Source: a virus
IMG/VR virus record: IMGVR_UViG_3300045988_169015
Coordinates: 1-64,000 of that record
Length of the DNA: 64,000 nt
Reading direction: 5' to 3' (one strand)
This document shows positions 1 to 61,742 of the stretch, one piece after another. Every line of letters starts with the position of its first letter. Within the stretch, counting starts at the first letter, position 1. The notes beneath the pieces were generated by a model, which saw nothing but the letters and a program-made list of their open reading frames with translations, was not told the DNA's origin and did no database searches. Made by a program: the position numbers and the translations under genes.

Positions 1-89
1 ATTTTTTTTTACCATTTATGATTACAATCATTACATTATTTGATATGTGTTATATCATTTTAATATCAATAAAAGAAAGGAATTAATCA

Positions 90-353
90 ATGAGTAAAAA
101 AAGAGTCGTATTGACGAAAGAAAGCAGCGATTATATTACAGTCATGTCTCCACCAACTCCAGAACCAATAAAAATTGTGGAATTTGAAAAAAAAGGAATC
201 AATCTACGAGAGATTTTAATAATTGCTATTACTTCATTTATTATTGGATTTATCCTTTTTAAAATTATCTTCCTTTTTTCTGTGTTTAAAGCAAAAGCAA
301 TAAAATATTTTATTAAATCCTTCGTCATCAATGGCGAAGGATTTTATTTATGA
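90..353 (+). CDS. small membrane protein (hypothetical)
   Basis: 87-aa ORF with AAAGGA upstream of the ATG and one hydrophobic helix (ILIIAITSFIIGFILFKIIFLF). No recognisable family. Confidence 0.35.
   Translation: MSKKRVVLTKESSDYITVMSPPTPEPIKIVEFEKKGINLREILIIAITSFIIGFILFKIIFLFSVFKAKAIKYFIKSFVINGEGFYL
317..349. terminator. stem-loop terminator between convergent genes
   Basis: 8-bp stem ATCCTTCG/CGAAGGAT with a 10-nt loop, followed by TTTTATTTA. It lies between the 3' ends of the 90-353 (+) and 348-2297 (-) ORFs. Confidence 0.5.
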
Positions 354-2297
354 AACGATGTCAATAATTGTATCAAAGTATAGAAGCACAAATTGACGGA
401 CATCACTACAGAGATTTTTATCACAATGATTATTGTCAATCCATTGTTTATAACAAGCAATTACATTACCGAGATATCCCTTACCGTATATTGACTGTGC
501 TTTATTCCAGAATTCATCTATTGGATTTTCTTCGGATAGATTAAACGCTAAAAACATCTTATTATATCCTAAGTTTTCAACCTGTGTTTTTAATTTCACA
601 AAAGCATTTTTCTCAGCGAACATATATGACTTAGCATAATCGGATAACTGAGGATCAATAGATGATAGCAAATCATCAATCTGATTTTTATAACAAGATA
701 TTTCCTGTGAGACAATGTTCCACAAGTACACTTGTATTTTAGCGTAAATATCACACTTTTCCCATTCACCATACATTTCAGTTGTTTTTCTGACGCTTGC
801 CCAATGAATTGTATTTTTTATAGTGTCAAACATTGAATCAAAAGAATTAAGAATGCGTTTATTAGTTGTAATCGTTGGCATCACTTGTGACTTAAATTCT
901 TCGAGTTTACTGGCCACCCTATTACGTTCACGGTCAAGTGCTGTTGGCTGCTTTTTCAGGCTGTTAAATATATTCTGAGCTCGTTGAGAAATATCATCGG
1001 CTTCAGAAATAAGGGAATTACGGAAATCATCTTTTACTTTGGTAATACTTTTAGAAAAATCCTCTCGGCAGTCATTGGCGATTTCAGAATCAATGTCGGC
1101 AATAACATAGTGTTGTTTTGAAGACGGATCGTCCTTTTTGCGAGGTGTTTTCATCATTGAATATGCTTCTAAAGCATTGAAGAAAATGGTATTCTTGTTA
1201 TAATAGTTCAGTCTGTTCGATCTTATACAGGTATCGATTTCTGAAATTTTTATTCTTTCTCCATCTTTTTCATCTTCTGCTTCACAAACACTGTCAAGCT
1301 CACTATCTCTACAAGCAATAACGAGGGATAATCTTGGAATAATATCGGTATTTTCTTTAATTACCCACGAATTAAATATGGGATACAATTCTTTGTTGAT
1401 AGGAGACGTTATTTTATCAAGAATAATATTGATAGTGTTATCCTGCTGAATCAGATTTTTAATGTCTATGCGTCCCTCTCCGTCAAAGCCTCGAGTATCT
1501 ATAATTTCATCGGCCCATTCGGGCAATGGAAGTTCGAAATCATTTTGACAAATTTGAATGTAAATACGTTTAGGTATTGAAACCCCCGCACACTTTCCAA
1601 GATTAATATCAGAAAATGTCTTTTTAAGCCATATTTTAAAATTAAATTTGCTATCGTAGGGTATAGAGAACGTATTACGTGTTGCGATGCCCGTTCTATT
1701 GAGAATCTCATTGCAGAAAACCGCATAGTCAGCAGCTCTGTATTTCTGGCTAATTTCATTTATGATATCTTCGTCTTTAGAATAGCCATTTTCCTTGGTA
1801 AAGCCTGCCATATTTTTTATCATTCTATAAAGCTCGGCAGATTCTGTTTTATCTTCTGATTTATTATCTTCATCAGATCCGATTTCTTTGTCGAACGTTT
1901 TGTCCCACACAGAACGACAATAGCTTTTTATGCAGCTTGTTTGTTCTTTTTGACTGCAAGGCTCTATACGTATGAGAGATTTTTTACCTGTAAGAATGTG
2001 GATTTCAGCTGCGGTCGTTCTTCCGCTGGCTGTATTCAAAAGGGGTACATCGTCTTTCTTTTTACCGACAAATTTATCAGTCAATAAATTAAGATAGTTA
2101 CAAATAAGTGATGTTTTACCTACACCGGGAGCACCTATAAAAACGAGTTTATATTTATCAACGTCTAAAAGCTCGTCAATTCTATGTAAACGTTGGATAT
2201 ATTCAGATATAACTTTTTTGTTATTTGGGGAAATTACAGTATTGTATAACTCAAGATTTGACTGTGTGGTATTAATATAGTTTTGTATTTGATTCAA
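348..2297 (-). CDS. P-loop GTPase, dynamin/TRAFAC-like, with long helical C-terminal half
   Basis: TTG start with AAGGAG 9 nt upstream. G1/Walker A GAPGVGKTS (aa 55-63), candidate G2 TASGRTT and G3 DTRGFDG. Family assigned from motifs only. Confidence 0.6.
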   Translation of the reverse strand: MNQIQNYINTTQSNLELYNTVISPNNKKVISEYIQRLHRIDELLDVDKYKLVFIGAPGVGKTSLICNYLNLLTDKFVGKKKDDVPLLNTASGRTTAAEIHILTGKKSLIRIEPCSQKEQTSCIKSYCRSVWDKTFDKEIGSDEDNKSEDKTESAELYRMIKNMAGFTKENGYSKDEDIINEISQKYRAADYAVFCNEILNRTGIATRNTFSIPYDSKFNFKIWLKKTFSDINLGKCAGVSIPKRIYIQICQNDFELPLPEWADEIIDTRGFDGEGRIDIKNLIQQDNTINIILDKITSPINKELYPIFNSWVIKENTDIIPRLSLVIACRDSELDSVCEAEDEKDGERIKISEIDTCIRSNRLNYYNKNTIFFNALEAYSMMKTPRKKDDPSSKQHYVIADIDSEIANDCREDFSKSITKVKDDFRNSLISEADDISQRAQNIFNSLKKQPTALDRERNRVASKLEEFKSQVMPTITTNKRILNSFDSMFDTIKNTIHWASVRKTTEMYGEWEKCDIYAKIQVYLWNIVSQEISCYKNQIDDLLSSIDPQLSDYAKSYMFAEKNAFVKLKTQVENLGYNKMFLAFNLSEENPIDEFWNKAQSIYGKGYLGNVIACYKQWIDNNHCDKNLCSDVRQFVLLYFDTIIDIVS

Positions 2298-2328
2298 TTA
2301 TAACATCTCCTTGACATAATTTGTTATT

Positions 2329-2357
2329 ATTATAACATATTTCGTCATAGTTTACAA
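2329..2357 (-). promoter_or_regulatory. sigma-A-type promoter for the GTPase gene
   Basis: On the minus strand: TTGTAA, 17-nt spacer, TATAAT. It lies about 30 nt upstream of the RBS and TTG start at 2297. Confidence 0.5.
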
Positions 2358-2362
2358 TAGCC

Positions 2363-2395
2363 AAAAAAATAAAGGGCAACAAATTTGTTACCCTT
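2363..2395 (-). terminator. rho-independent terminator after the TIR-like/4-TM operon
   Basis: Minus strand AAGGGTAAC-aaattt-GTTGCCCTT (9-bp stem with one G-U pair) followed by TATTTTTTTGG. It starts 40 nt after the stop at 2435. Confidence 0.6.
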
Positions 2396-2434
2396 CACAA
2401 ATATTGATTAAATTTTTGTATTCTTTAGCCAAAA

Positions 2435-3016
2435 TTATATATCGTATTTTATTACATAATACGAGTGTGTGCTCCATAATATAAAATATCCTACAAAAAT
2501 AACTGTATCAATAATTAAAAAACATAATATATTGGGGGTTGAATATTCGCTTTTTATTTTCAATGATGCAACGACAAGTGAAAACAAAGGAAAAAAATAT
2601 TTATAACAGAAATTTGTAAATTTGGATATTGATTTATAGTTTTTTGTATAATCTTTTCCCTCTCTGTTAAATGTTATCTTGGAAAGTTCTGTTATTTGTT
2701 CTTCCAGATAGTCAATATATTTATATTCTCGTTCAATATATACCATTGATTGTGAATATCTTAATGTTTCATAAAATAAAGCAAGCCATAAAAAAGTTTG
2801 AAATACAGAAAATTGGTTGCTTAAGTCTAATAAATATTGTTCATTTATAAAATTAAAAATAATATTGCTATATTCGATAGGATTAAAAGTGAACAATAGA
2901 AGAATAAATAATAATATAAAAACAAGCACGAACTTTTTATCTCTTTGTTTCGTTTGTTCGGATATAACAACAAACGTTTCTTTATAATGATCGTAAAATA
3001 ACTCTAAGTTATCCAA
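2435..3016 (-). CDS. four-helix integral membrane protein (candidate effector)
   Basis: TTG start 2 nt after the upstream stop, with GAGG 7 nt upstream. Hydrophobic helices VLVFILLFILLLFTF, FQTFLWLALFY, FFPLFSLVVASL and ILCFLIIDTVIFVGYFILW flank a roughly 55-aa charged loop. Confidence 0.6.
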   Translation of the reverse strand: MDNLELFYDHYKETFVVISEQTKQRDKKFVLVFILLFILLLFTFNPIEYSNIIFNFINEQYLLDLSNQFSVFQTFLWLALFYETLRYSQSMVYIEREYKYIDYLEEQITELSKITFNREGKDYTKNYKSISKFTNFCYKYFFPLFSLVVASLKIKSEYSTPNILCFLIIDTVIFVGYFILWSTHSYYVIKYDI

Positions 3017-3018
3017 TG

Positions 3019-3453
3019 TTATGCCTCATTTAACGCTTTAATGATGGCATCTTGTGTAAATGACATTGCCCACGATGCTCCCGAGTTTAAAAATTCCTCT
3101 GGCGATTCATAAGATTTATCGATCTTTACGCCAACTAACTTGTTTTTATGCGCTTTACTTTTTGCAACCTCAAAATTAATCCAGTTTTTATAACCTATTT
3201 CTTCGCTATCAGGATGCTTCTTATTGGCTTCAGCACCTATAATGACTAAAGTATATGTTGTTGTATTGATTCGTCTTGTTAGTCCTGCTTTTATTCTTGA
3301 AATATCATTTGATTGAATTTCATCAGAAGAACAATCTTCGAAAACAAAATCCATATTTTTATTTTTATCCCAAGCATCTAAAAGGAACTTATAATGTTTG
3401 TCATTGGTATAATCAAATGAAACGAAAACTTTTTTCTTAGACATCTTAGACAT
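3019..3453 (-). CDS. TIR-like domain protein (DUF1863 / ThsB-type)
   Basis: ATG at 3453 is preceded by AAAGGAG. KKVFVSFDY, TLVIIGAE and NWINFEVAKS match the TIR-like DUF1863/ThsB pattern. The longer ORF-track start at 3516 has no RBS. Confidence 0.7.
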   Translation of the reverse strand: MSKMSKKKVFVSFDYTNDKHYKFLLDAWDKNKNMDFVFEDCSSDEIQSNDISRIKAGLTRRINTTTYTLVIIGAEANKKHPDSEEIGYKNWINFEVAKSKAHKNKLVGVKIDKSYESPEEFLNSGASWAMSFTQDAIIKALNEA

Positions 3454-3661
3454 AGTAATATCTCCTTTAAAATAAAGAATAGAGGTGAGTATCCTAATGG
3501 TTTTAAAAAAATGCAATCATAATTGGAAAATCGACCACGAATGTTTTATTTATGATGCTTATAGTCCTTTATCGCATTGTAATAAAATAAAAATAATCTA
3601 TTATAAATGCGACAAGTGCTTAAGAGTAAAAAAAGAAAAGCTGTGGTAAACCCATATATAG

Positions 3662-3690
3662 ATTATATCATATCTAATCATAAAATGCAA
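3662..3690 (-). promoter_or_regulatory. possible promoter for the TIR-like operon
   Basis: Minus strand TTGCAT, 17 nt, TATAAT. The background is AT-rich and the leader would be about 200 nt, so this is tentative. Confidence 0.3.
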
Positions 3691-3707
3691 TATAAAAATC
3701 TAATTTA

Positions 3708-4160
3708 TTACCACTTATATCCGCAATCCTTACAGTGCATAGTCTTACCCAAGTTACTACTAAACAATCCAACCAAAGCAAGACCCAAAGCTTTCTGAGC
3801 TGTGGATATTTTTTCTACATTTGTACTTCCGCAGGTAGGACACTTGGGAACAGACGTACCCTTTTTCTGCTCGGCGATTTGGTTGCGCTGCAATTCTAAA
3901 TGGCGCATTTCGATAGCATGTTCGTCTCTCAGGCGGCGCTTGTAGAACTTTTCAGAGAACTCAGGGTTTCCGTAGAGAGCGTCGGCGTTAGCATGACCAT
4001 CTGCATCTTCCTTGCTCGACCAGCTGTCATCGTCAGGAGCTTCGAATGTATAAGTGATCAAATGTTCATAGTTACAATATACGCATCTTTTATATCTGGA
4101 CGAATAATGATATCTTAGGCATCTTGGACAAATTGAATATTCAGATTTATGTATTTCCAT
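3708..4160 (-). CDS. double zinc-ribbon protein (hypothetical)
   Basis: AAGGGG RBS. CPRC..CVYC near the N-terminus and CPTCG..CKDCG near the C-terminus, separated by an acidic/charged linker. Confidence 0.55.
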   Translation of the reverse strand: MEIHKSEYSICPRCLRYHYSSRYKRCVYCNYEHLITYTFEAPDDDSWSSKEDADGHANADALYGNPEFSEKFYKRRLRDEHAIEMRHLELQRNQIAEQKKGTSVPKCPTCGSTNVEKISTAQKALGLALVGLFSSNLGKTMHCKDCGYKW

Positions 4161-4180
4161 AGTATCATCCCCTTACAATA

Positions 4181-4209
4181 ATAATATCATCAAAATAAAT
4201 AATTGTCAA
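4181..4209 (-). promoter_or_regulatory. sigma-A-type promoter for the zinc-ribbon gene
   Basis: Minus strand TTGACA, 17 nt, TATTAT, about 20 nt upstream of the RBS/ATG at 4160. It overlaps the ORF-track TTG start of the tape measure ORF. Confidence 0.5.
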
Positions 4210-7200
4210 TATTTTTAAAAACAATAATTTCTCACAATTATTGTTTTATTGATAACAGATTGAATATATTCCAACCCGCTTCGGTTATTAAGCAAATAAA
4301 AGAGCAATGGGAAAATAAAAATAATATATTTGACATTATACTTGATGAGCAAGAGATAAAAAAGGAACTTGACGACGCTAAGGGAAAAATCAAAGATTTT
4401 TCTTCTGACGCATATAAATACTGGAAAAGCATTGCTGAAGGTACAACAGAAGCAAAAGATACTATGGGTGCTTATCTTGCAACATGCGTTGCCGGCAACA
4501 GGACAGTTTCCGAAGAAGGATATCAAAAATATATTGGCTCTACCTATATTGATTATGCTCAGAACAATACCAATATTCAAAAGATATTTGACCGCTATAT
4601 TGAGCTTAAGGGTAAAATAGACGATGCACAGGCAGTTTTGGAAGAATCAAAAAATAATCTGGGACTGTTTAAGCCGTCTCTCGATGACAATGCCTACGAA
4701 CAGGCTAAGAAGGCTGTAGAAGATAACACAAAAACCGTTGAGAGTGCCCAGAAAGCATATCGTGAGTTTGATAATTCTATACGAACTGTAAATACCGGCA
4801 TAGCAGATTTTGCGCAAAAACAAACACTCGGTGCCAAGTCCGGTAAAATCTATGAACATCAGGCTCGTGCTACCGCTGCCGCCAAAACAGTAGAGGCAGC
4901 GGCTATGACAGCTGCAAATATTGCTCTATCGTTTGGAATCAGTTTGATTGTTCAGGCGGGAATTTCTGCGCTTGCTGCGTGGATAAATTCTGAGAAAGAC
5001 GCAATTAAAAAGGCAAACGAACTTGCTGATGCTTTTAATACTGAGAATGATTCTATCAATGATAATATAGATAAAATCAAAGAACTCAAAGATGCTATAG
5101 AGTCTGGGACTTTAACCGATTCAGAAGCTTATGATAAGAAAAAAGATCTTCTGGAAATTCAGAATGATTTATATAACACTTACGGAGAAGAAGCTGCAGG
5201 AATTGATCTGGTCAATGGTAAGCGTGACGAAGAAATTGCTAAGCTTAGAGAAATCCAAAAGCTTAAAGCTCAGGAAACATTAAATAACGGAGGATACGCA
5301 GGAGAAGAAGCTGCTGAGGAATACCTTGCGCAAAAAAGTAAAACCGGTTGGAATATTTTTTCATCAAGTGGAGCACTTTCAAAGTTTTCTCTTGCCGGAT
5401 TTACAGAAGCATTTTCTACAAATTCAGACGTAAAGAAAAAGTTGCGCCAAGAAGCTGAAAGACTTGGCGGACAAACAAATTTATTAAATGGCATAACAAC
5501 ATTTGATGATGTTACATATGAAGAAATGATTGAAATTTATGATTCATTGATTCAGTACATCAACGATAATTTCGAAGCCAACGATAAAGAAGCTGCCAAG
5601 TGGAGAAATAAACTTTCAGAACGCAGGCGAGATTTAGCAGAATCTGAAGATTATAAATCAAGCAAAGAAGGTTATGAGAGTGGTGCAAAAGAGCGAATTA
5701 TCGCAAATGATGATGCCTACAATTATTATCTCAAAATTCAGCAAGCCATCGATGATTACAATGAAGCTGTTGTTTCCGGTGATACTGATGAAATCAATAA
5801 GGAAATTGAAAGCCTAAGTAAATTAAAAGATGGAATATTAGACATCGAAGAAGCTGCAAATCATCAGAATGTTGCCGATTATTTCAAGGAAATGTTTAGT
5901 GTATTTGACCAAGACATATCTGAACAAAAACTGCGTGATGCAATCACAACCGGCATTAGTAATAATGGAAAATGGGGAACTATATCTAAAGCACTTAACG
6001 GTAAGACAGACGTAGAAGCAAAAGCCTACCTAAGCAATGCTGAAAATGGCCTTACTGACTTTTTGACTGTTGCACAAGAGACATTCGGTACTACAATAGA
6101 TGGTATCATTTCGGCATTTGCAGATCTCGGCATTATTGAATCTACAACATCCAGCGACACTGACGCTGTAACCAAATCGTTCTCTGTACTTGTAGAACAA
6201 ATGGATACTACGAGAGATAAAGTTGATAAATTCGATACGGCTATGTCAAAAATGATGACCGGCGAAACAATGGATAGCAGTGAAGTAAATGAAATACTCT
6301 CATTTGCTCCCGATCTTTTAAGTTCAGTTGAAAAAACAGCCAATGGATATGTTATAGCTTATGATAAAATGGCTGAAGCAAGAGAAAAGTTTGTTTCTTC
6401 CGAAAGAAAAGATATTTCAGATGAAATAAAGACAAATAAAAAAGAAGAAACAGAAATCAAAAAAGAAATAGCTGAGCTTCAAAATAATTTATATACAACT
6501 GACGATCCCGAGGAAATGCTGGCATCCTGGAAAAGTAAGCTTAATAAATATACTTCTTTAAACGATGAAGTCGGTATTAAGCAAGCTACCGAGAATATTG
6601 ATAAATATGAAAAGATCATCGAACAGAATAAGCAAATCAACGCTAAGATTGACGACAGAAAAAATAAAATCAAAGATATAAATGCCGAAACAGCTCAATA
6701 CCAATTCTTGCTCGAACAACTGGAAAACTCTACTCAGAACTGGGTGTCTATACTTGATAGTGCGGCAAATAAATTTGAGACTATAACAAGTAAAATACTT
6801 GAAATGCGTAATCAAATGGCTGCATATAACGAACTTGATCCAACTACCGCCCTTGATTTTATGCAGCAAGTTCCTGATTGGCAGAAGTATCTCAGTGTTA
6901 ATAACGGGAAAATAGTATTAAACGATCTGGATAACGCTACTCTATCTGAAATGATAAAGAAAACCAGCGGACTGGACAATGCGTATAAAGCACTGAAAAA
7001 CACTACCGATAAGCTTTCATCTGCTCAAGAAGTATTCGAGTCAAAACTTAAAGCCCTTAAAGAAAAGTTTGGCGGAGCAAATAGTGAAGGAAAAAACTCT
7101 GCTCAGATTCTTTCTGATATGCAAGCGAGTGGAAAATATACAACAAAACAACTTGAAGAAGCCGCTATGCGAATGGGCAAATTTGAAAATGGAATAAATG

Positions 7201-9599
7201 CCACAGGAGATGCTATAGAAGATAGTAAAGAAGAATTGACGTTCTTAGATGAGATTTTAAAATCCATTATTGAATCGTTCAAATCTTCTGATGCTGTTAA
7301 TAAGTTCAATAAGACGGTAAAGGATCTCAAACATCAATTAGCTACGGGTGAAATAAACCAAGAAACATATGACCAAGGTTTTGCAGCGGCTGTCACCACT
7401 TTAAAGAATACAGCAGCATCTAATGATTCAGAAGCTCAAGATCTGATCGACAGTGGTGAAGAGGAAATATATAATGCTAAGCTCACTCGGCTTCAGGAAA
7501 ACTTTGATGACGCAAAACTTATCATTGACAATGCTCGTGAAGACCTGCAGATAAGTGCCCTTGAATATCAAAAGCAATTTGCTGTTCTCAATGAACAGTA
7601 TTATGCTCCGGGCACAATGCTTGGCAATACAGAAGATGGCAAGAAACAGTATGAAGCTAATCTTCGTGAAATTGAAAAGCTTGCAGGAGACGCATTTAGC
7701 GACATTACCTCCAGAATTCAAAGTTCTATTGATTTTGGTAAGATAATTGATCCAAGCATTATTGATGATATTAAGGAAGTATTTGAAGGTCAAGAACTCC
7801 CCGATGCAGTTGCTCAATCAATTCAAAAGGGTATAGAAACAGGTGTATGGGACGCTACCGATTTGGCAGCTATGGCTCCTTATCTTTCGGAAGCACTACT
7901 CGGCAATTCTGAACAGCTGACCGGCGCACTTCAAGATGCGCTTGAACAACAGAAGAGTTACGTAACATCGGCATTTGAGTACGAAAAAGAGCAGCTCGAC
8001 AATCAGCTTGAAGCCGGACTTATCTCATCTGACGACTATATTGACGAATACACTAAGCTCTGGGAAAAGTATTACAAGGACAAGAAAGAATTTGCAAAGG
8101 AAGATTTGCAGACACAAAAAGACATCCTTGAAGCCTACAAGAGTGAAATTCAGAAACAGATAGACGGCTTAGACGCAATGTCCGAGCTGCAGACTCAGCC
8201 TTATCAGGACGAGATCGACGCACTGAACGATGTCCAAGACGAATACGACAAGATGATGGACAAGCGCATCAAGGCTCTGAACAAGGAAAAAGAGAAGCTC
8301 GAAGAGCAAAACAAGGAACGTGAAAAGGCAAACGACATACAAGACAAATATCTTGCGATGCAAAAAGCAAGTGTTAAAAAGTATATCGTACTGACCAACC
8401 ACGGCTGGGAAGCTCAGGCAGACAGTGAAGAGTATAAACAGGCTAAAAAGGAATACGAGGACGCAAAGCAGGACTCCGTAACAGATGCTATTGAAAAGCA
8501 GATCGACGCCCTTGAAAAAGAAAAAGAAGCCCGTGACGAGTCTATCCAGACCGAGATCGAGGAACGTGAAAAACAAATCAAGCAAATTGAGACACCTATC
8601 AACAATCTGACAAGGGTTCTGACGGCGCTCTTAGCGCAGCAATACAATCTTGATCCTGACTTTATAGCCCAGCTTTTGTCCAGCGCCGATGGTACAACAG
8701 CGCTCGAAGCTTTGAACAAGAAGATGGCTTTCAGTCAGTCTCAGGCTTCCGCTGCCGGCGTAGATGTTCCCGACGACACGCTTACCACTTCCGATGCCCA
8801 AAAAATGGTCGATGGATTGGCAGAAGAGAATAACCGTACTACGGAAGAGGTTGCCAAAAACATCGGACTTGACCTGAACAGCAGTAATTCTACAGCTGCA
8901 GAGACCACCAAATCGAGCAATACCACCGCACCTCAAGATGATGTTGTAACGGCAAACACCCAAGCCACCGAAGCTCTCACGGAAGAGATGAAAAAGTCTA
9001 ACGACAATGCCGAAAAGCAAAATGCCGATAGTAAGAGCGACAATAATAAAACTAAGGACATTACTGTCGGAGGATATAACCTCGTTGCTGATCCCAAGAC
9101 AGGTAAGCTTACAAAGAAACCCGTTACAATCAATGGTGAACCTGTTGAGGGTCTGGGTCACAAAGTCAATGCGACCACAAAGGCTGAACATAATAAGCAT
9201 AAGTCTGACTATCAAAAGGCGCTTGAAAGCGGAACGTTTACCGGCTCTTTCGCAGACTATATGAGGCAGCAAAGGGCTCGCAAAAAGGGTATCGTTCCTA
9301 TAACCGAGGCAACCGGCGGAGAAGCTAAAATTGTTGCCCAGGCAATTCAGGCGTTTACGAGAAGCGCTGATATTCCTATCAACTCGAACATCAAGACAAA
9401 TCAGCTTATCGAGCCTGCAGATGTGGTTCAGGTCAACACTCAGCCTGCGTTTAATTGTACGATCAACATTGAAGGCAGTGCCGATGAAAAGACCGTAGAA
9501 AAATTCCGCAGCGTATGTGAAAACGAGATCAACGGTTACTTCCAGTATCTCAATAACACAATGAACTCAGCGTTTGTTAAGTCACGCTATAGTAAATAA
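4203..9599 (+). CDS. tail tape measure protein (start uncertain)
   Basis: Uninterrupted 1798-codon ORF with charged, coiled-coil-like composition. It has a hydrophobic segment (AAMTAANIALSFGISLIVQAGISALAAWI) and lies upstream of the tail genes. The only in-frame canonical starts are TTG 4203, TTG 4260 and ATG 4464, and none has an SD. Confidence 0.8.
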   Translation: MSIFLKTIISHNYCFIDNRLNIFQPASVIKQIKEQWENKNNIFDIILDEQEIKKELDDAKGKIKDFSSDAYKYWKSIAEGTTEAKDTMGAYLATCVAGNRTVSEEGYQKYIGSTYIDYAQNNTNIQKIFDRYIELKGKIDDAQAVLEESKNNLGLFKPSLDDNAYEQAKKAVEDNTKTVESAQKAYREFDNSIRTVNTGIADFAQKQTLGAKSGKIYEHQARATAAAKTVEAAAMTAANIALSFGISLIVQAGISALAAWINSEKDAIKKANELADAFNTENDSINDNIDKIKELKDAIESGTLTDSEAYDKKKDLLEIQNDLYNTYGEEAAGIDLVNGKRDEEIAKLREIQKLKAQETLNNGGYAGEEAAEEYLAQKSKTGWNIFSSSGALSKFSLAGFTEAFSTNSDVKKKLRQEAERLGGQTNLLNGITTFDDVTYEEMIEIYDSLIQYINDNFEANDKEAAKWRNKLSERRRDLAESEDYKSSKEGYESGAKERIIANDDAYNYYLKIQQAIDDYNEAVVSGDTDEINKEIESLSKLKDGILDIEEAANHQNVADYFKEMFSVFDQDISEQKLRDAITTGISNNGKWGTISKALNGKTDVEAKAYLSNAENGLTDFLTVAQETFGTTIDGIISAFADLGIIESTTSSDTDAVTKSFSVLVEQMDTTRDKVDKFDTAMSKMMTGETMDSSEVNEILSFAPDLLSSVEKTANGYVIAYDKMAEAREKFVSSERKDISDEIKTNKKEETEIKKEIAELQNNLYTTDDPEEMLASWKSKLNKYTSLNDEVGIKQATENIDKYEKIIEQNKQINAKIDDRKNKIKDINAETAQYQFLLEQLENSTQNWVSILDSAANKFETITSKILEMRNQMAAYNELDPTTALDFMQQVPDWQKYLSVNNGKIVLNDLDNATLSEMIKKTSGLDNAYKALKNTTDKLSSAQEVFESKLKALKEKFGGANSEGKNSAQILSDMQASGKYTTKQLEEAAMRMGKFENGINATGDAIEDSKEELTFLDEILKSIIESFKSSDAVNKFNKTVKDLKHQLATGEINQETYDQGFAAAVTTLKNTAASNDSEAQDLIDSGEEEIYNAKLTRLQENFDDAKLIIDNAREDLQISALEYQKQFAVLNEQYYAPGTMLGNTEDGKKQYEANLREIEKLAGDAFSDITSRIQSSIDFGKIIDPSIIDDIKEVFEGQELPDAVAQSIQKGIETGVWDATDLAAMAPYLSEALLGNSEQLTGALQDALEQQKSYVTSAFEYEKEQLDNQLEAGLISSDDYIDEYTKLWEKYYKDKKEFAKEDLQTQKDILEAYKSEIQKQIDGLDAMSELQTQPYQDEIDALNDVQDEYDKMMDKRIKALNKEKEKLEEQNKEREKANDIQDKYLAMQKASVKKYIVLTNHGWEAQADSEEYKQAKKEYEDAKQDSVTDAIEKQIDALEKEKEARDESIQTEIEEREKQIKQIETPINNLTRVLTALLAQQYNLDPDFIAQLLSSADGTTALEALNKKMAFSQSQASAAGVDVPDDTLTTSDAQKMVDGLAEENNRTTEEVAKNIGLDLNSSNSTAAETTKSSNTTAPQDDVVTANTQATEALTEEMKKSNDNAEKQNADSKSDNNKTKDITVGGYNLVADPKTGKLTKKPVTINGEPVEGLGHKVNATTKAEHNKHKSDYQKALESGTFTGSFADYMRQQRARKKGIVPITEATGGEAKIVAQAIQAFTRSADIPINSNIKTNQLIEPADVVQVNTQPAFNCTINIEGSADEKTVEKFRSVCENEINGYFQYLNNTMNSAFVKSRYSK
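4218..4247. repeat. perfect 12-bp inverted repeat (AAAACAATAATT / AATTATTGTTTT), 6-nt spacer
   Basis: Read directly from the sequence. It sits 8 nt upstream of the -35 of the 4181-4209 promoter, inside the AT-rich 5' extension of the tape measure ORF. Confidence 0.6.
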
Positions 9600-9694
9600 A
9601 AAAATGCCCGTCTGAAATATGGCGGGCAGATATGTCTCTGATGCTGCACGAAGCTAAGAGGCACCAAATAAGAATGTAAAGAAAGGAGACTTCT

Positions 9695-10165
9695 ATGAAT
9701 AAGGAAGGTAAGCAAATACTTGATAATTTTCAAAAGACTATGACTACCGGTGTTAACGATAATGCCAAAGCCATTATAAAGAAATCCGATTTTGACAAAA
9801 CCCTCATCGGTTTTGTTTCAGATCAGCAAACCAAAAACGACGGCACGGTTCAATGGGAAATCCAGACCGAGGGCGCCGCTTATATGATAGATGCAAAGAA
9901 AAGCAATATTACGACTGTGGGTCAGAGGGTAAGACTGTATCTGCCGAATCATGACTATAGGAATAAGTATGCAGAGGTTATTGATGATATTTTTTCAAAA
10001 GAGAACTTAATTGAAATAGTCAAGGTATCCGATAATGAAGTTTATGGCTTATATCAGGATAGTGGAAATAAAAAAATAAAATATAAGCAAACAATTACCG
10101 CAGAAGGCAGTGGTAATGAACGCCATAATTTTGCGGAAAAGATAGAAATCATACAGGAGGGATAA
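9695..10165 (+). CDS. tail/baseplate-region protein (hypothetical)
   Basis: 156 aa with AAAGGAG RBS. First gene after the tape measure. Confidence 0.55.
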   Translation: MNKEGKQILDNFQKTMTTGVNDNAKAIIKKSDFDKTLIGFVSDQQTKNDGTVQWEIQTEGAAYMIDAKKSNITTVGQRVRLYLPNHDYRNKYAEVIDDIFSKENLIEIVKVSDNEVYGLYQDSGNKKIKYKQTITAEGSGNERHNFAEKIEIIQEG

Positions 10166-10167
10166 TT

Positions 10168-10521
10168 ATGACATTTGAAGATGCTACAAAAATAATGATT
10201 TGTCAAAGCCAAGACTCTGACGCCAATATAAAAACCGATGATCCTCCCTTATATAGTGTTGTTTTTTGTCCATATGATAATTACAGCTTTTACGAATATT
10301 CCGAAGATGGAAGTAAGAGTGAAAATAAAATCTTTGATAAAAATACTATAATAGAGACCTATTGGAAATGGTGGTATGATGATGATAATAAATATAACCA
10401 AATTTATAAATATAGGCATTTTAAAATAGAGGTAAAAAACGAAAATACTCATTTGGAGTGTGTAACAGCTGTAATTGATCTTGATAATAATTTAAAATAT
10501 ACAATACCCGAGGTGATATGA
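10168..10521 (+). CDS. hypothetical protein (low-GC insert in tail module)
   Basis: 117 aa with GGAGGG RBS. The start is 2 nt after the upstream stop. Confidence 0.5.
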   Translation: MTFEDATKIMICQSQDSDANIKTDDPPLYSVVFCPYDNYSFYEYSEDGSKSENKIFDKNTIIETYWKWWYDDDNKYNQIYKYRHFKIEVKNENTHLECVTAVIDLDNNLKYTIPEVI

Positions 10522-10829
10522 TAATGAATTATTCAGAAGCAGCAGCATTGATGATCGGTGGCACAAGCGGCAATACAAAACAACTTGAAATTCCCAATGA
10601 AGTAAAGTTTGAAGAAGTAACAGGCTATCCATTTAATTGTATGATTACCGAGACGTATGCCAAAAATGAATATCATTCCGAGTATCAAAAAAAGATTGGA
10701 TTATCTATAGCGAATTTAGGAACACCGAATGAATATGTTAGCAATATATACTTTTATGACAATCCAAATATTACGAATCCTTATAACTACGACAATTACG
10801 TGTTTTTCTCAAATTTCTATATAGGATAA
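10518..10829 (+). CDS. hypothetical protein (low-GC insert in tail module)
   Basis: 103 aa with GAGGTG RBS. It overlaps the upstream stop; ATG 10524 is an alternative start. Confidence 0.5.
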   Translation: MIMNYSEAAALMIGGTSGNTKQLEIPNEVKFEEVTGYPFNCMITETYAKNEYHSEYQKKIGLSIANLGTPNEYVSNIYFYDNPNITNPYNYDNYVFFSNFYIG

Positions 10830-10840
10830 AAGGTGATAGT

Positions 10841-12541
10841 ATGACACGAAGACAATTCTTAGGAAGGCTTTTTCAATATTATATCACAATAAGAAATTCT
10901 CAAAGTATTTATGGGATTTATCACCCTTGGGTTCAGAGACCTATTGGAAGTGAAGTTACTGTACATATCGGATACTTTGATTCATATTCTTTTCATGAAA
11001 CGGGGTCAAGGAAAGGAATAGATTCAAGGTATTATAACCCGGGTGCAGGTTTATCAGAATTCCAATACACATTTCCAATATTCTGTATATACGACATAAG
11101 CAAGGAAAATTCTTGTACAAAAGAAAACATGATCTATTGTAATGCTAAGATGTCTAAATCACGAGGCGGTTATAAAATAGACAGTTATAGCAGTACAACC
11201 GTTAAAACAAACAATGGATCATATCTCATACCAGTAGGTAGATATAAATTACAAATTATATTATCTGGCGCTGGATATAATTTTTCACAGACAGAATACT
11301 ATTTTGAAATCACTGATTGTCGTGGTAACGATAATGCTTATTCTTCTGGTATTCAATATTATAACATCCCAACAAAACACATTTATTTGGAATGTGGTTT
11401 TGATTACATATATTATGATGTAAAACAAGATAAAAAGATTATTAATGGAGCGGAACATTACAAAAAAGTAGGCACTATTCCAATCTCAAATGAAATAGTT
11501 GATTGTGGAACTGCAATAGAAGTTCTTCCACGCTTTAAATATATATCTGATGGTCTATTTTTTGATTACTATATTCAATATCATCGGGTTTCGAATGGAA
11601 GCACTAATTGGTCAAATAACTCTGATTCAAATTTGGTTAATATAGGAACTTTAAAATACAATAGAGGATATAGTCAATCCAAAGATCTTATTTTTGTATA
11701 TAATAACGGTAATGCAGACGCTTATCAATACAATTCTCTGGATAGTAGTTTTTGGATAGACAACACATTATCTTCTTATGTGTCTTATATACCACATTTG
11801 GGCGGTACAGCGTGGTGTGTATATCAATATTACAACATCTATAACCCCAACGATGAAAATTATTGTCCATACGTCTCTCTCTCAGGTGGAAATTTAACTG
11901 TAACAAGGAGAAAATATGTGGGAACATATAATTCGTTTAAACCACGTCCGTATGCGGAGAATTCATTTGTAGAAATGCAAATTTTTCAAGGAAAAAAGGA
12001 TGTTTCGATAATGGAGAATATAAATAACCTTGTAGCCATGCTTCCAGAATACGATCAAGATTTTCATTCTCGTAAAGAAAGAACCGATAATCATACGTGT
12101 CATAAACCAATATATAATAATGGACAGGTGCCAAATGAAAGTATAGCAGCCGTAAATAAAGAAGCTCCAGACGGATGTGATGTCTATTACTTTACATATA
12201 ATTTTGGTTCGTATTTGAATGGTTCTTATCAGCCCGATAAAGTCATTCAAATTCCAGCAAAAGAATTGCAAAATGGTTATTCAGAAGAGAACGTTTCAAT
12301 TATAAAAAGAACTCCATCATTTTCATCGGTAATAAAAGATGGGGGCTATGTTCATGATAGAACATGGACGATAGAGACTGACTGGGACGAACAAGAAACG
12401 AAAATTTCTAAATTTACTGGAAATATTGATTGGACAGGATACGAATGTCATACTATAGATAATATATGGGAAGGCAATATGTTGTATCGACCAAATGTTA
12501 TAGAGTATGGAGATTCATCAATAATACCAGAAACAACTTAA
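10841..12541 (+). CDS. hypothetical Tyr/Asn-rich 566-aa protein (structural by position)
   Basis: Long ORF with AAAGGTG RBS. No recognisable motif. Confidence 0.6.
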   Translation: MTRRQFLGRLFQYYITIRNSQSIYGIYHPWVQRPIGSEVTVHIGYFDSYSFHETGSRKGIDSRYYNPGAGLSEFQYTFPIFCIYDISKENSCTKENMIYCNAKMSKSRGGYKIDSYSSTTVKTNNGSYLIPVGRYKLQIILSGAGYNFSQTEYYFEITDCRGNDNAYSSGIQYYNIPTKHIYLECGFDYIYYDVKQDKKIINGAEHYKKVGTIPISNEIVDCGTAIEVLPRFKYISDGLFFDYYIQYHRVSNGSTNWSNNSDSNLVNIGTLKYNRGYSQSKDLIFVYNNGNADAYQYNSLDSSFWIDNTLSSYVSYIPHLGGTAWCVYQYYNIYNPNDENYCPYVSLSGGNLTVTRRKYVGTYNSFKPRPYAENSFVEMQIFQGKKDVSIMENINNLVAMLPEYDQDFHSRKERTDNHTCHKPIYNNGQVPNESIAAVNKEAPDGCDVYYFTYNFGSYLNGSYQPDKVIQIPAKELQNGYSEENVSIIKRTPSFSSVIKDGGYVHDRTWTIETDWDEQETKISKFTGNIDWTGYECHTIDNIWEGNMLYRPNVIEYGDSSIIPETT

Positions 12542-27570: not shown

Positions 27571-28692
27571 TTACAAGTCATCTATTAAATTTACTGCATC
27601 GCTTTTTTGGTCTTCGATTAAATGAATGTACGTGTTTAAAGTAAAAGCTACGTTTGAATGACCAAGTAGTTCGCTTACAGTTTTTGCATCTACCTTTTTA
27701 CGGAAAAGCATTGATGCAAATGTATGGCGAAGTGTGTGTAAGCCTTGTGGATTTTCAATCCCAGCTCTTGCACAAATATGAAGATAATTATTAAAAAGAT
27801 TATGCACAGCTAAAGGTTTGTTTTCGGGCGAAATAACAAAGCTATCCTCGCCATTGTAATATTGGGCTTTGAGTTCGGTAAGAATAGAAATCGCTGTCTT
27901 ACTAAGATCAACGTATCTATCTCGGGATTTAGCAGAATCTTGTTCTAATATAGTATATTTACCAGGCTGCTCTTCATCATCAGCATCTTCGTTATATTTA
28001 TATATCGTTACAACATTAGATGCTACAAATATCCTTTTTTTATACCAGTCAACGTTCTTCCATTTTAATCCGATCAATTCGCCTGCACGAAGTCCTGTGT
28101 ACATGGCAAATATGAGCGCTTTCCCGTATTTGTATTTTGGGGCAGCTTCTTTAAACAGAGCAATTTCATTGTCATTGAAAAATCTAATTGTTTTTCGTTT
28201 AAATTTATCTTTTGATGGAAGAGAAACATCATCACAAGGATTGGGCATTCCTTTAGGAAGATAATATTTGAGACCAGCCTTTAAATAAATATATACTTTT
28301 TTTATAGTGGATAACGATTTTCCCTCTTCGAATAATCTGTTTATAAGTTCCGTTTGAATGAGGCTTGGAGTTAGAGCTTCAATGGTGTAATGACCAATGG
28401 CGGGGTTGATATTTTTTTTAATAATATATATAATGCTATTATATGATGTAGGCTTGACTTCTATTTTTTTTACGTTTTTTGCCCACTGAAGCAAACATTG
28501 GTCTAAATAATTTCCAACAACTTCTGGACTTTTCTGCTGTAATATAATTTGAAACTCTTCCATTCTTTTTACGACATCAGCCTTCTTTTTGCCTTTGAAA
28601 CGTTTATACTTAATACGTCCACTTTCATATTTTCCAATGGCTATTTGTCCGATAAAAATATTGCCCTCTTTTCGAATTGTTCCGTTAATCAT
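27571..28692 (-). CDS. int: tyrosine recombinase / phage integrase
   Basis: YTGLRAGELIGLKW, LHTLRHTFASMLF and LGHSNVAFTLNTYIH give the R..HxxR..Y signature. ATG 28692 lies 8 nt after GAGG; the GTG 28701 and ATG 28698 alternatives sit too close to the RBS. Confidence 0.85.
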   Translation of the reverse strand: MINGTIRKEGNIFIGQIAIGKYESGRIKYKRFKGKKKADVVKRMEEFQIILQQKSPEVVGNYLDQCLLQWAKNVKKIEVKPTSYNSIIYIIKKNINPAIGHYTIEALTPSLIQTELINRLFEEGKSLSTIKKVYIYLKAGLKYYLPKGMPNPCDDVSLPSKDKFKRKTIRFFNDNEIALFKEAAPKYKYGKALIFAMYTGLRAGELIGLKWKNVDWYKKRIFVASNVVTIYKYNEDADDEEQPGKYTILEQDSAKSRDRYVDLSKTAISILTELKAQYYNGEDSFVISPENKPLAVHNLFNNYLHICARAGIENPQGLHTLRHTFASMLFRKKVDAKTVSELLGHSNVAFTLNTYIHLIEDQKSDAVNLIDDL

Positions 28693-28729
28693 ATTCATCA
28701 CCTCGATAAGTATATTGTATCATTAAAGT

Positions 28730-57677: not shown

Positions 57678-57969
57678 TCGCATTGTCCTTTCCGAGCAAA
57701 CAGTTTGCTCTTTTCTGTGTTTCTTCTATCGCCTTCTGAATTTCCTGTGGTGAATTCTTGAGCGTTATATCTACAAAGTTCGATATATCTGCAATCAATG
57801 CTGATCTATCATCACCTGTAAATCCGTTGATTTTATCCTTAATGACCTGACAAAAAGCCTGGCTGCCATAAGAAAAGCCAATATTAAACTGCTTCTGCAG
57901 TTGTGTCTTATAAACTGCCTGAAGTTTTGCGATATTGTTATCAACTGTTTCAATCTGATGTGACTTCAT
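57670..57969 (-). CDS. hypothetical protein
   Basis: ATG 57969 with GGCGGAG RBS. About 99 aa. Confidence 0.45.
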   Translation of the reverse strand: MKSHQIETVDNNIAKLQAVYKTQLQKQFNIGFSYGSQAFCQVIKDKINGFTGDDRSALIADISNFVDITLKNSPQEIQKAIEETQKRANCLLGKDNANE

Positions 57970-58756
57970 TGTTCTTCTCCGCCTTTCCGTCAAGATCGGG
58001 TCTGTATCTGAACTTAGGCATAGGCTTCAGCTTATGCAGATTTGCATAATGCTTTCCGTCTATGATCTTCTTGGTGTCTTCGTCACATTCGCCTGTACGG
58101 ATGTACTTATCGAGTGTCTCATATGTAAATCCGAGATTCTCCTCATCAGTCTTACCGCAGAGACCGTCAGTAGGCACCTTATCGATCAGACAGCTGGGAA
58201 GCCCAAGTTCTCTGCCGATTGCCTTAACTTCCTGAACGGTAAAATCGTGGAGAGGGCTGAAATCACCTGCACCATCACCGAACTTGGTTGCGTAGCCGAC
58301 CCAATCTTCACTGAGATTGCAGGTATTGGCTACTCTGCCGCCCCTAAGAGCAGAAACGCAATAAAGGATTGTCATACGAGTTCTGGCAGGGTAATTCGTA
58401 TTCATACACCTGATCTTATTCTCAGGGCATCCAATGGTGTGTATCTGCACAGTTTCATCAACCACTTTGCAAACATCCTCGATGTTAATTTCATACACGT
58501 TCTTATCGGGAATTCCGCATACAGTGCAAGCCGTGTAAGAATATCTGATATCACCCTGCTTACCTCTGGGGAGCAGCACTGCAATTACTCTCTCGGAACC
58601 AAGAGCCTCTGCGCACAGCTTAAGTACCACAGAACTATCCTTGCCGCCCGAAACACCGACGACGGCAGTTGTATTCTCATCGCCGTTCTTGTCAAAGTAC
58701 CAGCGGATCCAGTCAATAATCTTGGAAGTTATCTTCTTTGCATTAAAATCATTCAT
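57950..58756 (-). CDS. nadE: NH3-dependent NAD+ synthetase
   Basis: PP-loop VGVSGGKDSS with NadE-like length and downstream motifs. GAGAGGAA RBS. Confidence 0.8.
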   Translation of the reverse strand: MNDFNAKKITSKIIDWIRWYFDKNGDENTTAVVGVSGGKDSSVVLKLCAEALGSERVIAVLLPRGKQGDIRYSYTACTVCGIPDKNVYEINIEDVCKVVDETVQIHTIGCPENKIRCMNTNYPARTRMTILYCVSALRGGRVANTCNLSEDWVGYATKFGDGAGDFSPLHDFTVQEVKAIGRELGLPSCLIDKVPTDGLCGKTDEENLGFTYETLDKYIRTGECDEDTKKIIDGKHYANLHKLKPMPKFRYRPDLDGKAEKNNEVTSD

Positions 58757-58768
58757 CTTAATTTCCTC

Positions 58769-59020
58769 TCATTCGTCCAAAGTTATAGAATTATTAATTT
58801 TTATTACGATTTCGTCATCACTCATATAGGAAGCCGCTCCAGATTGAAGATTAACAACACAAGAATAGTCACTAACATCAATCGTTGGCAAGTTCACATT
58901 GGGAATAATACGTATATCGGTATTGATATAGTAAGAACCATTCTTCATAAATAAATTTCCGACTGGTATATCTCCTAATGTGACTATTTTATAACTGTTT
59001 CTGATTCCAATTTGTGCCAT
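58769..59020 (-). CDS. hypothetical protein
   Basis: 83 aa with AAGGAG RBS. It lies inside the NAD cluster. Confidence 0.5.
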   Translation of the reverse strand: MAQIGIRNSYKIVTLGDIPVGNLFMKNGSYYINTDIRIIPNVNLPTIDVSDYSCVVNLQSGAASYMSDDEIVIKINNSITLDE

Positions 59021-59024
59021 AATA

Positions 59025-59453
59025 TCACTCCTTTTTTACATATCCCATTTCCACCTGCCAGCAGAGAGTTGCCAGGGCATTACAAGCCTCGAAAAGTCCG
59101 GCCTTGTCGTCAAGAAATAAATTATAATATATTTTCAAACCGTCTCCATATCTGCCGATTTCCGGGATATTCTCGTTAATGGTATCGAATGGAAGGTTCT
59201 CATCATGAAGAAACTGAATATTCTTTTCGTTATGGGGATTGGCTGTAAACACGATGAAATAAGGATTTAAAATTGTTTTCGCTTTACGTATCAAATTCTT
59301 CGCATGGTCACAGCATTCGCTTTTATACGGCCTCACTGTATCGTCAAGGTCATATGCAATAATCAAGCGTTCATGCTCGATATAGGCATCCCTGAGACGC
59401 TTATACAGAAAACCACCTACGAAAGCATCGTCTTCTTTTACTGTTGATGTCAT
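59025..59453 (-). CDS. small HAD-superfamily-like hydrolase
   Basis: DxDxT motif (AYDLDDTV). 142 aa. The ATG overlaps the upstream stop (ATGA). Confidence 0.5.
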   Translation of the reverse strand: MTSTVKEDDAFVGGFLYKRLRDAYIEHERLIIAYDLDDTVRPYKSECCDHAKNLIRKAKTILNPYFIVFTANPHNEKNIQFLHDENLPFDTINENIPEIGRYGDGLKIYYNLFLDDKAGLFEACNALATLCWQVEMGYVKKE

Positions 59454-60919: not shown

Positions 60920-61740
60920 ATGAAATTACCTCTTATTTCTGTTATTTTGTCGTTTTCAATGGGGATTTCCAGTGTATTGACTGTATAGATATGATCAATC
61001 CAGTCTGTCGTGAGCAGTATTCCTTCATACACAGCCTTTTCAAGATGAGTTACAAACAAATCTACCTTAGCTGCACCTGCCGCTTTAAGAGCCTGAGCTG
61101 CAAGAATAAATGTGCCGCCCTTAACACAAAGGTCATCGATTATCAGAATGTTTTTGTCCTTAATATCGGGGGCATTAACCAGCTCATACTTTTCAATCTT
61201 TCCGGTTGAAAGCTCACGCTTCTTGTTACCGTAAAAGTAATTAGTATATGTAAGGTGCTCGCCAAAAGACTTGCAGGCTCCATTATCAGGATAAAATACG
61301 TAATCGGGGGCACTTCGCCTATGTACTTCTTGAATACCGGCATCGTATATAACTTTGACGTTGTTAATAAGCGCCGGAGTTACATTGGAGTGAGGTGTAA
61401 GTATTGTTACCGAATCAAAATTAAGAGAATTGATGATATCGGCAACATATCTGAGGCTGAACGCCATTGAAGACATCTGCCTATCCATTCTTGAATATGG
61501 CATATATGCAATGGTCAGAGTTATAATTGCTTCATCCCAACCGTAATCAACTCTGTTTTCCTTTGACTGTTCATCAAGACACTTCTTGGCCACAATGAGC
61601 TTAAAGATATCAGCGTCCGATTCATATACAAGCTTGATTTCATTTACTGCATCCTTGACATAATAAGTTCCCATATCAAAAATGGTTTCACCATTAGGAA
61701 AACTTTTATCTCCAAAAGGTGCATTATTTATGTAAATCAT
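60916..61740 (-). CDS. ribose-phosphate pyrophosphokinase family protein (Prs/Adps-like)
   Basis: YMPYSRMDR (compare Prs YARQDR) and PRPP-type loop ILIIDDLCVKGGT. It overlaps the NAMPT-like start by 4 nt. Confidence 0.75.
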   Translation of the reverse strand: MIYINNAPFGDKSFPNGETIFDMGTYYVKDAVNEIKLVYESDADIFKLIVAKKCLDEQSKENRVDYGWDEAIITLTIAYMPYSRMDRQMSSMAFSLRYVADIINSLNFDSVTILTPHSNVTPALINNVKVIYDAGIQEVHRRSAPDYVFYPDNGACKSFGEHLTYTNYFYGNKKRELSTGKIEKYELVNAPDIKDKNILIIDDLCVKGGTFILAAQALKAAGAAKVDLFVTHLEKAVYEGILLTTDWIDHIYTVNTLEIPIENDKITEIRGNFI

Positions 61741-61742
61741 AG

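Follow-up and report, generated by a model that had tools for sequence, protein, structure and literature searches.

The 64,000-nucleotide stretch of viral DNA analysed here (positions 1 to 64,000 of IMG/VR record IMGVR_UViG_3300045988_169015, called the window below) carries on its minus strand an operon of two genes, which encode a ThsB-type TIR protein of 144 residues and a 193-residue protein with four predicted transmembrane helices (4TM protein). The pair is probably a phage-borne, two-gene module of the Thoeris type, in which the TIR protein makes a signal derived from ADP-ribose (ADPR) and the 4TM protein acts as the membrane effector. The two genes occur together far beyond chance. 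A sequence-only reading of the window had described the pair as Thoeris-like, with a partner that is either a membrane effector gated by a TIR product or a sensor for a TIR NADase; this interpretation is partly supported and holds in outline. As a prediction, the TIR–4TM pairing is not new, having been listed as a candidate in Table S1 of the survey by Yirmiya et al. (bioRxiv 10.64898/2025.12.03.692087, 3 Dec 2025). This analysis adds to that survey the extent of the effector family, the absence of homology between it and known effectors, a confident structural model, the conserved cytoplasmic residues, the pairing with TIR_2 proteins, and the carriage by phages.

The operon and its two proteins

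Both open reading frames named in the sequence-only reading are present on the minus strand (Table 1). The 144-residue frame contains the TIR-like segments KKVFVSFDY, TLVIIGAE and NWINFEVAKS, and the 193-residue frame begins after a spacing of exactly two nucleotides (CA) past the TIR stop codon. The use of the TTG codon at 3016 as the start of the 4TM gene is supported by its homologues, which begin at the equivalent codon. In 20 relatives this codon is ATG (15), GTG (three) or TTG (two), always directly behind the TIR stop; in the nearest clade it is GTG or TTG. The operon ends at its own terminator, which had been placed at 2363–2395. The GC-containing hairpin is the sole terminator-like site across positions 2200–4300, and the 86-nucleotide stretch 2355–2440 that holds it has a folding energy of −24.6 kcal/mol (z = −4.34), which none of 200 shuffled sequences equalled. 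The promoter listed in Table 1 is a candidate only, because such sites are no commoner here than in shuffled sequence. A 250-nucleotide spacer (3454–3707) separates the pair from the upstream zinc-ribbon gene. The pair lies, as had been claimed, in a low-GC island on the strand opposite to that of the phage structural genes: the GC fraction is 0.23–0.32 over 2250–3750, compared to 0.35–0.49 in the flanking structural genes of the plus strand.

The TIR protein matches the Pfam family PF08937 (ThsB_TIR) over residues 10–114 with an E-value of 2.4e-10 and 41.1 bits (cutoff 21.2), and the PADLOC model ThsB1 with 3.1e-13. According to Pfam, it is a single-domain protein without an obvious sensor module. 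Its alignment to the ThsB protein of B. cereus (BcThsB) among PDB sequences (6LHY, 9B7D) is weak and places the segment NWINFE on RRWVRYE of BcThsB (PDB 6LHY). The glutamate of WVRYE is presumably the catalytic Glu85 of BcThsB. The corresponding candidate catalytic residue of the window protein, Glu95 (codon 3171–3169), is invariant across 52 neighbour TIR proteins from independent loci, which share 35–77% identity, as are F13, D14, D18, E45, I46, I86, N90, W91 and P118. The invariance of Glu95 points toward enzymatic chemistry on nicotinamide adenine dinucleotide (NAD+). The earlier assignment of the protein as a ThsB-type TIR with a candidate catalytic glutamate is thus borne out. The TIR protein also matches PDC-M50B, a component of the PADLOC candidate system PDC-M50, at 3e-11; the PDC-M50A models matched neither the 4TM protein of the window nor 150 of its relatives.

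The four membrane helices of the 4TM protein, which had been predicted by the sequence-only reading, are evident in both its hydropathy and its AlphaFold2 (AF2) model, at approximately residues 29–44, 68–83, 131–152 and 163–186 (TM1–TM4). The charged loop between TM2 and TM3, given previously as 55 residues, is shorter and spans about 47 residues (84–130). Hydropathy and the counts of lysine and arginine residues are consistent with a topology in which both termini are inside the cell, so that residues 1–28 and 84–130 are predicted to be cytoplasmic. The AF2 model calculated from 150 sequences is all-helical, with helices at residues 3–44, 46–61, 69–112, 121–126, 128–159 and 164–192, and has a predicted local distance difference test (pLDDT) score of 95 and a predicted template-modelling score of 0.88. 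An earlier model based on 11 close homologues had a pLDDT of 67 and was discarded in favour of the 150-sequence model.

A word-indexed search with the 4TM protein identified 11 close clusters. The profile search of 1.84 billion representatives extended the family to 617 clusters at 50% identity with E ≤ 1e-3, and 413 clusters had E ≤ 1e-10. The main model, the analysis of conservation and the family-wide scans are based on 150 members of the 617 clusters. Among the 150 members listed, nearly all are 190–220 residues long and match end to end. Residues H10, Y11, R25, Y87, Q89, Y98, Y100, E105, R118, E119, Y123 and Y127 are invariant or near-invariant, and E105 is kept in all 150 members. Positions that are kept in 90% or more of the members all fall in the predicted cytoplasmic parts, except for Y138 and P143 in TM3. 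The family motifs are LYDHYKDT, RYxQ, IERxYxYIHxLE and REGxxYLxxYP.

The 4TM proteins appear to be a large unnamed family without a detectable relative among the known effectors. The window protein itself has no match in Pfam or PADLOC, and no consistent Pfam, PADLOC or NCBIfam family was found among the 150 members scanned. When the window protein and the 150 relatives were scanned with Pfam, SIR2, SLOG and Macro domains were found in none of them, in agreement with the earlier statement that the partner lacks them. Foldseek comparison of the model with PDB and BFVD gave nothing at E ≤ 0.001, and the best template-modelling scores were about 0.25–0.44. The profile of the family produced only chance matches to PDB sequences, which were the membrane helices of the Fc-epsilon receptor gamma. 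When 50,697 GenBank phage records were searched, neither the 4TM protein (tblastn) nor positions 1–12000 of the window (megablast) had a match. Eleven of the 150 members have sub-threshold matches to Pfam family PF24838 ("8xMP, octameric membrane protein family"), the best with an E-value of 2.1e-5, and one family member of 477 residues bears a putAbiC domain (6e-20).

Linkage of the 4TM family to TIR genes

Loci were retrieved with the membrane protein as the sole query, and the TIR protein was not used for retrieval. A 20-sequence alignment of 4TM proteins identified 64 loci in 185,579 species-representative genomes, belonging to Bacillota, Bacteroidota, Actinomycetota, Patescibacteria, Pseudomonadota, Cloacimonadota and one archaeal metagenome-assembled genome. 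The 4TM gene has an adjacent TIR gene in 59 of the 64 loci, and the other five end at a contig edge. In 52 loci the directly adjacent gene, on the same strand, encodes a ThsB-type protein closely homologous to the TIR protein of the window; such a gene is upstream of the 4TM gene in 43 of them, downstream in seven and on both sides in two. A canonical TIR_2 protein takes its place in seven loci, so that the partners come from two distant TIR families. The TIR_2 partners include a 764-residue TIR-TPR/Sel1 protein and an 865-residue LRR-Roc-COR-TIR protein, and one of the seven loci contains two TIR_2 genes. In addition, all seven viral contigs of IMG/VR with a 4TM relative have a TIR gene alongside. 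Therefore, the linkage is near-obligate and crosses TIR families. A survey of relatives for co-occurrence of the pair, which had been proposed together with the original description, thus found the two genes kept as neighbours.

Across the genome loci, the 4TM gene mostly starts −8 to +19 nucleotides from the TIR stop. Among close relatives with 59–99% identity, a TIR gene of 141 or 144 codons is located immediately 5′ with the two-nucleotide spacing in every contig with enough flanking sequence, and the pair stays adjacent down to approximately 25–30% identity. Two divergent TIR genes accompany one 4TM gene at some loci (L008, L009 and L048), and also in the entries ga0169192_10055220/22 of Table S1. 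Most of the 64 loci come from contigs of bacteria or archaea, and their gene neighbourhoods vary and are not lysis cassettes. Some close relatives adjoin a phage tape-measure gene, and one locus (L004) adjoins an nSTAND NTPase-Metallophos gene. No CD-NTase or pyrimidine cyclase was found among the neighbour genes of the 4TM family that were examined.

Several loci contain larger TIR proteins. The 4TM relatives of Bacteroidota adjoin LRR-Roc-COR proteins (L045:4594–7191, L048:727–3903 and L050:4783–8082); the protein of L045 has a C-terminal TIR_2 domain, whereas those of L048 and L050 were assigned from the visible sequence only. A TIR-TPR/Sel1 protein is encoded beside the 4TM relative of a Lachnospiraceae metagenome-assembled genome (L016:1720–4014). 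The LRR-Roc-COR-TIR and TIR-TPR/Sel1 proteins are apparently TIR sensors similar to nucleotide-binding leucine-rich-repeat proteins that are wired to the 4TM protein. A separate observation concerns the 9.9-kb plasmid NZ_CP140719.1 of Acinetobacter johnsonii (L077), on which genes for TIR, TIR, a TPR-repeat protein and TIR (1857–4701) form an operon beside a RelE/HigA pair. It may be a multi-TIR Thoeris system of the TPR-effector kind.

Proposed mechanism and alternative explanations

Thoeris now comprises eleven validated types, the membrane effectors of which are TM-Macro proteins in type II, DUF2270 in type V, DUF6650 with or without transmembrane helices in type VI, SLATT in type VII and an ion channel in type X (10.64898/2025.12.03.692087). 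The background given in the sequence-only reading, with SIR2-SLOG and transmembrane Macro proteins as the known partners, is outdated. A TIR protein with a bare membrane partner is no longer unusual, because several validated types have membrane effectors. Yirmiya et al. also catalogued 29 putative configurations. The label "4TM" is given in their Table S1 and Fig. 1C to about 36 TIR proteins, all from TIR cluster 2727267812; it is absent from the main text and stands as a label alone, without effector sequence, family description or structure (10.64898/2025.12.03.692087). Residues 7–143 of the window TIR protein are 100% identical to Table S1 entry ga0111058_100036108, whose effector is listed as "4TM", and the TIR protein of Blautia producta (L010) is identical to entry 2515955466. 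We infer from these two loci that the "4TM" of the survey is the family described here, since Table S1 lists no effector sequences. Our literature searches found no later paper on the TIR and 4TM configuration. Cluster 2727267812 also contains the type VII TIR protein of B. licheniformis SCCB 37, the system of which defends and is triggered specifically by canonical cyclic ADPR (cADPR) (10.64898/2025.12.03.692087). The window TIR protein is approximately 40% identical to the type VII TIR proteins of its cluster.

We propose that the ThsB-like TIR protein would detect the infecting phage and, by means of Glu95, make from NAD+ a second messenger related to ADPR. The likeliest candidate for the messenger is canonical cADPR, since the nearest validated TIR proteins, those of type VII, use it. 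The messenger may be bound by the N-terminal helix and the TM2–TM3 loop of the 4TM protein, which are predicted to be cytoplasmic and contain almost all of the invariant histidine, tyrosine, arginine, glutamate and glutamine residues. Once the messenger is bound, the four-helix membrane domain would oligomerise or open, and the membrane would lose its integrity, which would abort the infection. A lysogen with the module would be protected from superinfecting phages. This mechanism is supported by the signal production of the nearest validated TIR proteins and by the independent prediction of the same pairing in Table S1. Further support comes from the tight coupling of the two genes, the position of the conserved 4TM residues in the cytoplasmic parts, the defence-like genes adjoining relatives (the nSTAND NTPase of L004), and the recurrence of the pair as cargo beside tape-measure genes.

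The pair shares with Thoeris systems in general the ThsB-type TIR protein with an aligned glutamate, the effector gene conserved alongside it, and the occurrence of loci with two TIR genes. It resembles most closely in layout type VII (ThsB with the SLATT protein ThsH, signalling by cADPR), which is also a two-gene operon of a small TIR protein and a small multi-pass membrane protein, has TIR proteins of the same cluster, and presumably operates by the same logic of a signal acting on a membrane assembly from its cytoplasmic face. However, the 4TM effector is not a SLATT protein, has four membrane helices instead of two, and contains other conserved motifs. Type V (ThsB with the DUF2270 protein ThsF, which has three membrane helices, and 3′cADPR) likewise combines a TIR protein with a small membrane protein, helical and about 200 residues long. 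ThsF was predicted to be a channel-like homo-oligomer with charged pockets between protomers (10.64898/2025.12.03.692087). The TIR proteins of type V belong to other clusters. In type I (SIR2-SLOG ThsA, 3′cADPR) and type II (ThsB with the TM-Macro protein ThsC, His-ADPR), a TIR signal activates a separate effector, which in type II is membrane-anchored; the 4TM protein differs from the effectors of types I, II and III in that Macro, SIR2 and SLOG domains are all absent from it. The transmembrane effectors of CBASS and Pycsar (2TM, 4TM and SLATT) are also small nucleotide-activated membrane disruptors encoded beside a signal-generating enzyme, but the neighbour here is always a TIR protein, and the PADLOC models of CBASS effectors fail on the 4TM family, with one stray match in 150 members.

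Several observations weigh against the proposed mechanism. Yirmiya et al. selected ten configurations for experiments, to which the 4TM one did not belong, and 15 of the 30 candidate operons that they cloned defended against phages. The TIR cluster does not fix the signal, as single clusters span several Thoeris types, and the authors point out that the TIR protein in unverified types might be an NAD+-depleting effector instead of a signal generator (10.64898/2025.12.03.692087). The TM2 helix of the 4TM protein (68–83) is only moderately to weakly hydrophobic. Library, profile and fold searches detected in the 4TM protein neither a recognisable nucleotide-binding domain nor homology to any validated effector.

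The roles of the two proteins could be reversed, which we regard as unlikely. The 4TM protein would then be a membrane sensor or anchor that switches on the TIR protein by contact, for example when phage DNA enters, a holin acts or the envelope is stressed, and the TIR protein would be an executioner that depletes NAD+ without a messenger. TIR proteins serve as such NADase effectors in CBASS, Pycsar, SPARTA-type prokaryotic Argonaute and Avs systems (summarised in 10.64898/2025.12.03.692087), and the authors of the survey leave this option for the unverified types; the bare TIR domain of the window lacks an obvious sensor module, and the 4TM protein lacks a recognisable ligand-binding fold. 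However, the nearest validated TIR relatives produce signals, and the partners of the 4TM family come from TIR families that are distant from each other, sometimes with two divergent TIR proteins at one locus. A single protein interface that serves all of them is less likely than a common small-molecule product, and therefore a diffusible product is the more likely means of communication. The partners include large TIR proteins with sensor-like modules of their own (LRR-Roc-COR, TPR/Sel1), which argues for the 4TM protein as effector and not sensor, as does the flanking of one 4TM gene by two divergent TIR genes, an arrangement of several sensors with a single effector that is classic for Thoeris. 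Of the two possibilities put forward in the sequence-only reading, the locus survey thus favours an effector gated by a TIR product over a sensor for a TIR NADase.

It is improbable that the 4TM protein belongs, in a highly diverged form, to a validated effector family, either SLATT (ThsH of type VII) or DUF2270 (ThsF of type V), which would make the system an ordinary Thoeris of type VII or type V. The common TIR cluster with type VII would fit this explanation, as would the length of about 190–220 residues, which suits small membrane effectors, and the SLATT-like arrangement of the N-terminal half of the 4TM model, in which a cytoplasmic helix is followed by two membrane helices and another cytoplasmic helix. 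The identity of the 4TM protein as SLATT or DUF4231 was rejected by profile comparison. A TIR-linked protein encoded on a Staphylococcus chromogenes plasmid (DUF4231, 1.1e-23; SLATT_1, 2e-10) was used as the control seed, and 66 of its 86 homologues were aligned into a DUF4231/SLATT profile, against which hhalign of the 4TM family profiles gave a probability of only 0.25–0.3%. The Pfam models SLATT_1 to SLATT_6, DUF4231 and DUF2270 (PF10028) matched none of the 150 members at E ≤ 0.1. The resemblance of the 4TM model to a giant-virus DUF2270 protein in Foldseek is weak and non-significant (E-value 2.3, template-modelling scores 0.41/0.35), and the plasmid neighbours of type V TIR matches found by tblastn are not DUF2270 proteins. 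A SLATT-like or other pore fold of the membrane protein, which the initial description had proposed to look for, was found neither by the profile comparison with SLATT nor by the fold searches of PDB and BFVD.

Small multi-pass membrane proteins of phages are often holins or exclusion proteins. That the pair serves the phage life cycle, as a TIR-regulated lysis-timing or holin-like protein, as toxin-antitoxin-like stabilisation, or in surface exclusion that blocks DNA entry, is the least probable explanation and a very doubtful one: such a commonplace identity and the separately transcribed, low-GC insertion in the tail-gene region of a temperate phage would suit it, but most of the 64 loci are bacterial or archaeal, are spread over many phyla, and lie in non-lysis neighbourhoods, some beside defence-type genes, the invariant TIR glutamate suggests enzymatic NAD+ chemistry, and obligate TIR linkage is untypical of holins or exclusion proteins.

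The preferred reading, in which a TIR-made signal acts on a membrane effector, has a more far-reaching form that we consider possible and put forward tentatively. The 4TM protein would be a new class of ligand-gated effector, with its own fold, and would define a twelfth Thoeris type that is spread by temperate phages. Its fold would be unrelated to the SLATT, DUF2270, Macro-TM and ion-channel effectors, and it would read the TIR product at a site formed by the N-terminal helix and the TM2–TM3 loop. The product could be an undescribed molecule; the signals of types X and XI have not yet been identified. Temperate phages would carry the type as cargo in their tail-gene regions, and the complete NAD+ salvage cluster of the phage (see below) might offset what its own TIR protein costs it in NAD+.

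The host phage and neighbouring genes

The gene content of the window indicates a large temperate phage, as had been proposed. The window contains an integrase gene, its proteins are held in NCBI nr as DAK06458–DAK06463 under the name "MAG TPA: Caudoviricetes sp.", and a copy of the island is present inside a bacterial contig of 1.09 Mb (GCA_902363145.1), between the genes of a 2098-residue tape-measure protein and a 1779-residue protein. The JGI contigs that bear proteins of the window are about 142 kb long. The tape-measure protein of this related locus belongs to the PhageMin_Tail family and is located on the side of the island opposite to that of the 1798-residue coiled-coil-rich protein (Table 1), and therefore the island interrupts the tail-gene region. 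A skipping-rope RNA motif (Rfam RF02924, 27421–27498, plus strand; 75.6 bits, gathering score 36.7) adjoins the integrase gene.

The gene directly past the terminator of the pair encodes a P-loop NTPase of 649 residues and has its own TG-extended promoter-like site (2357–2329). It belongs to no Pfam or PHROG family, and its matches to the PADLOC models LeoA and IetA are weak; possibly this gene, too, is cargo with a role in defence. The upstream zinc-ribbon protein is common, with up to 149 contigs for one cluster member. We rejected both genes as components of the module, as they accompany the pair in its nearest relatives only and are absent in L001, L002 and L004. The position of the P-loop gene beyond the terminator, with its own promoter-like site, also argues against it as a third component.

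The same phage carries a cluster of NAD+ salvage and biosynthesis genes on the minus strand (57950–62315). It may counter NAD+-depleting defences of the host or buffer the phage's own TIR protein. A TnpB-like protein is encoded near the end of the window.

Table 1. Positions of the operon elements and of other features in the window
Feature	Position	Strand	Details
thsB-like TIR gene	3453..3019	−	144 residues; ATG at 3453, TAA stop 3021–3019
Ribosome-binding site of TIR gene	3467–3462	−	AAGGAG, 8 nucleotides 5′ of ATG
4TM protein gene	3016..2435	−	193 residues; TTG start; open reading frame and translation
Ribosome-binding site of 4TM gene	3027–3024	−	GAGG, within 3′ end of TIR gene, 7 nucleotides before TTG
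Intrinsic terminator of the two-gene operon	2398..2359	−	13-bp stem 2398–2369, 4-nucleotide loop, T-run to ~2359
Sigma-70-like promoter, weak candidate	3667..3696	−	TTTATA-18-TATGAT; consensus scan, 9/12 matches, 5′ of TIR gene
P-loop NTPase gene	348–2297	−	649 residues; GAPGVGKTS; JGI name "GTPase SAR1 family"
Zinc-ribbon protein gene	3708–4160	−	150 residues; two CxxC motifs; sub-threshold Zn_ribbon matches only
Coiled-coil-rich protein gene beside the island	4203–9599	+	1798 residues; no Pfam or PHROG match
Integrase gene	27571–28701
NAD synthase NadE gene	57950–58756	−	3e-46
NAMPT/NAPRTase gene	59453–60919	−	1.8e-26, plus NAMPT_N
Phosphoribosyl pyrophosphate synthetase-like gene	60916–61740	−
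Isochorismatase/nicotinamidase-like gene	61743–62315	−	6e-22
TnpB-like gene	62962–63825	−	OrfB_IS605 6.6e-28, Cas12f1-like TNB 4.1e-24

The gain from this analysis is incremental, since TIR proteins with membrane effectors are an established concept and the pairing was already catalogued as a candidate; a pair of this kind comes as no surprise. If validated, the pair would be a further Thoeris type with an effector family of at least 617 clusters at 50% identity that is unnamed in databases. The 193-residue 4TM protein would then provide a compact model for the opening of a membrane protein by a nucleotide that a TIR protein makes, with H10, Y11, R25, Y87, Q89, Y98, Y100, E105, R118, E119 and Y123 as targets for mutagenesis. 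The carriage of TIR–4TM pairs by phages of the human gut, documented here, is relevant to competition between phages and to phage therapy.

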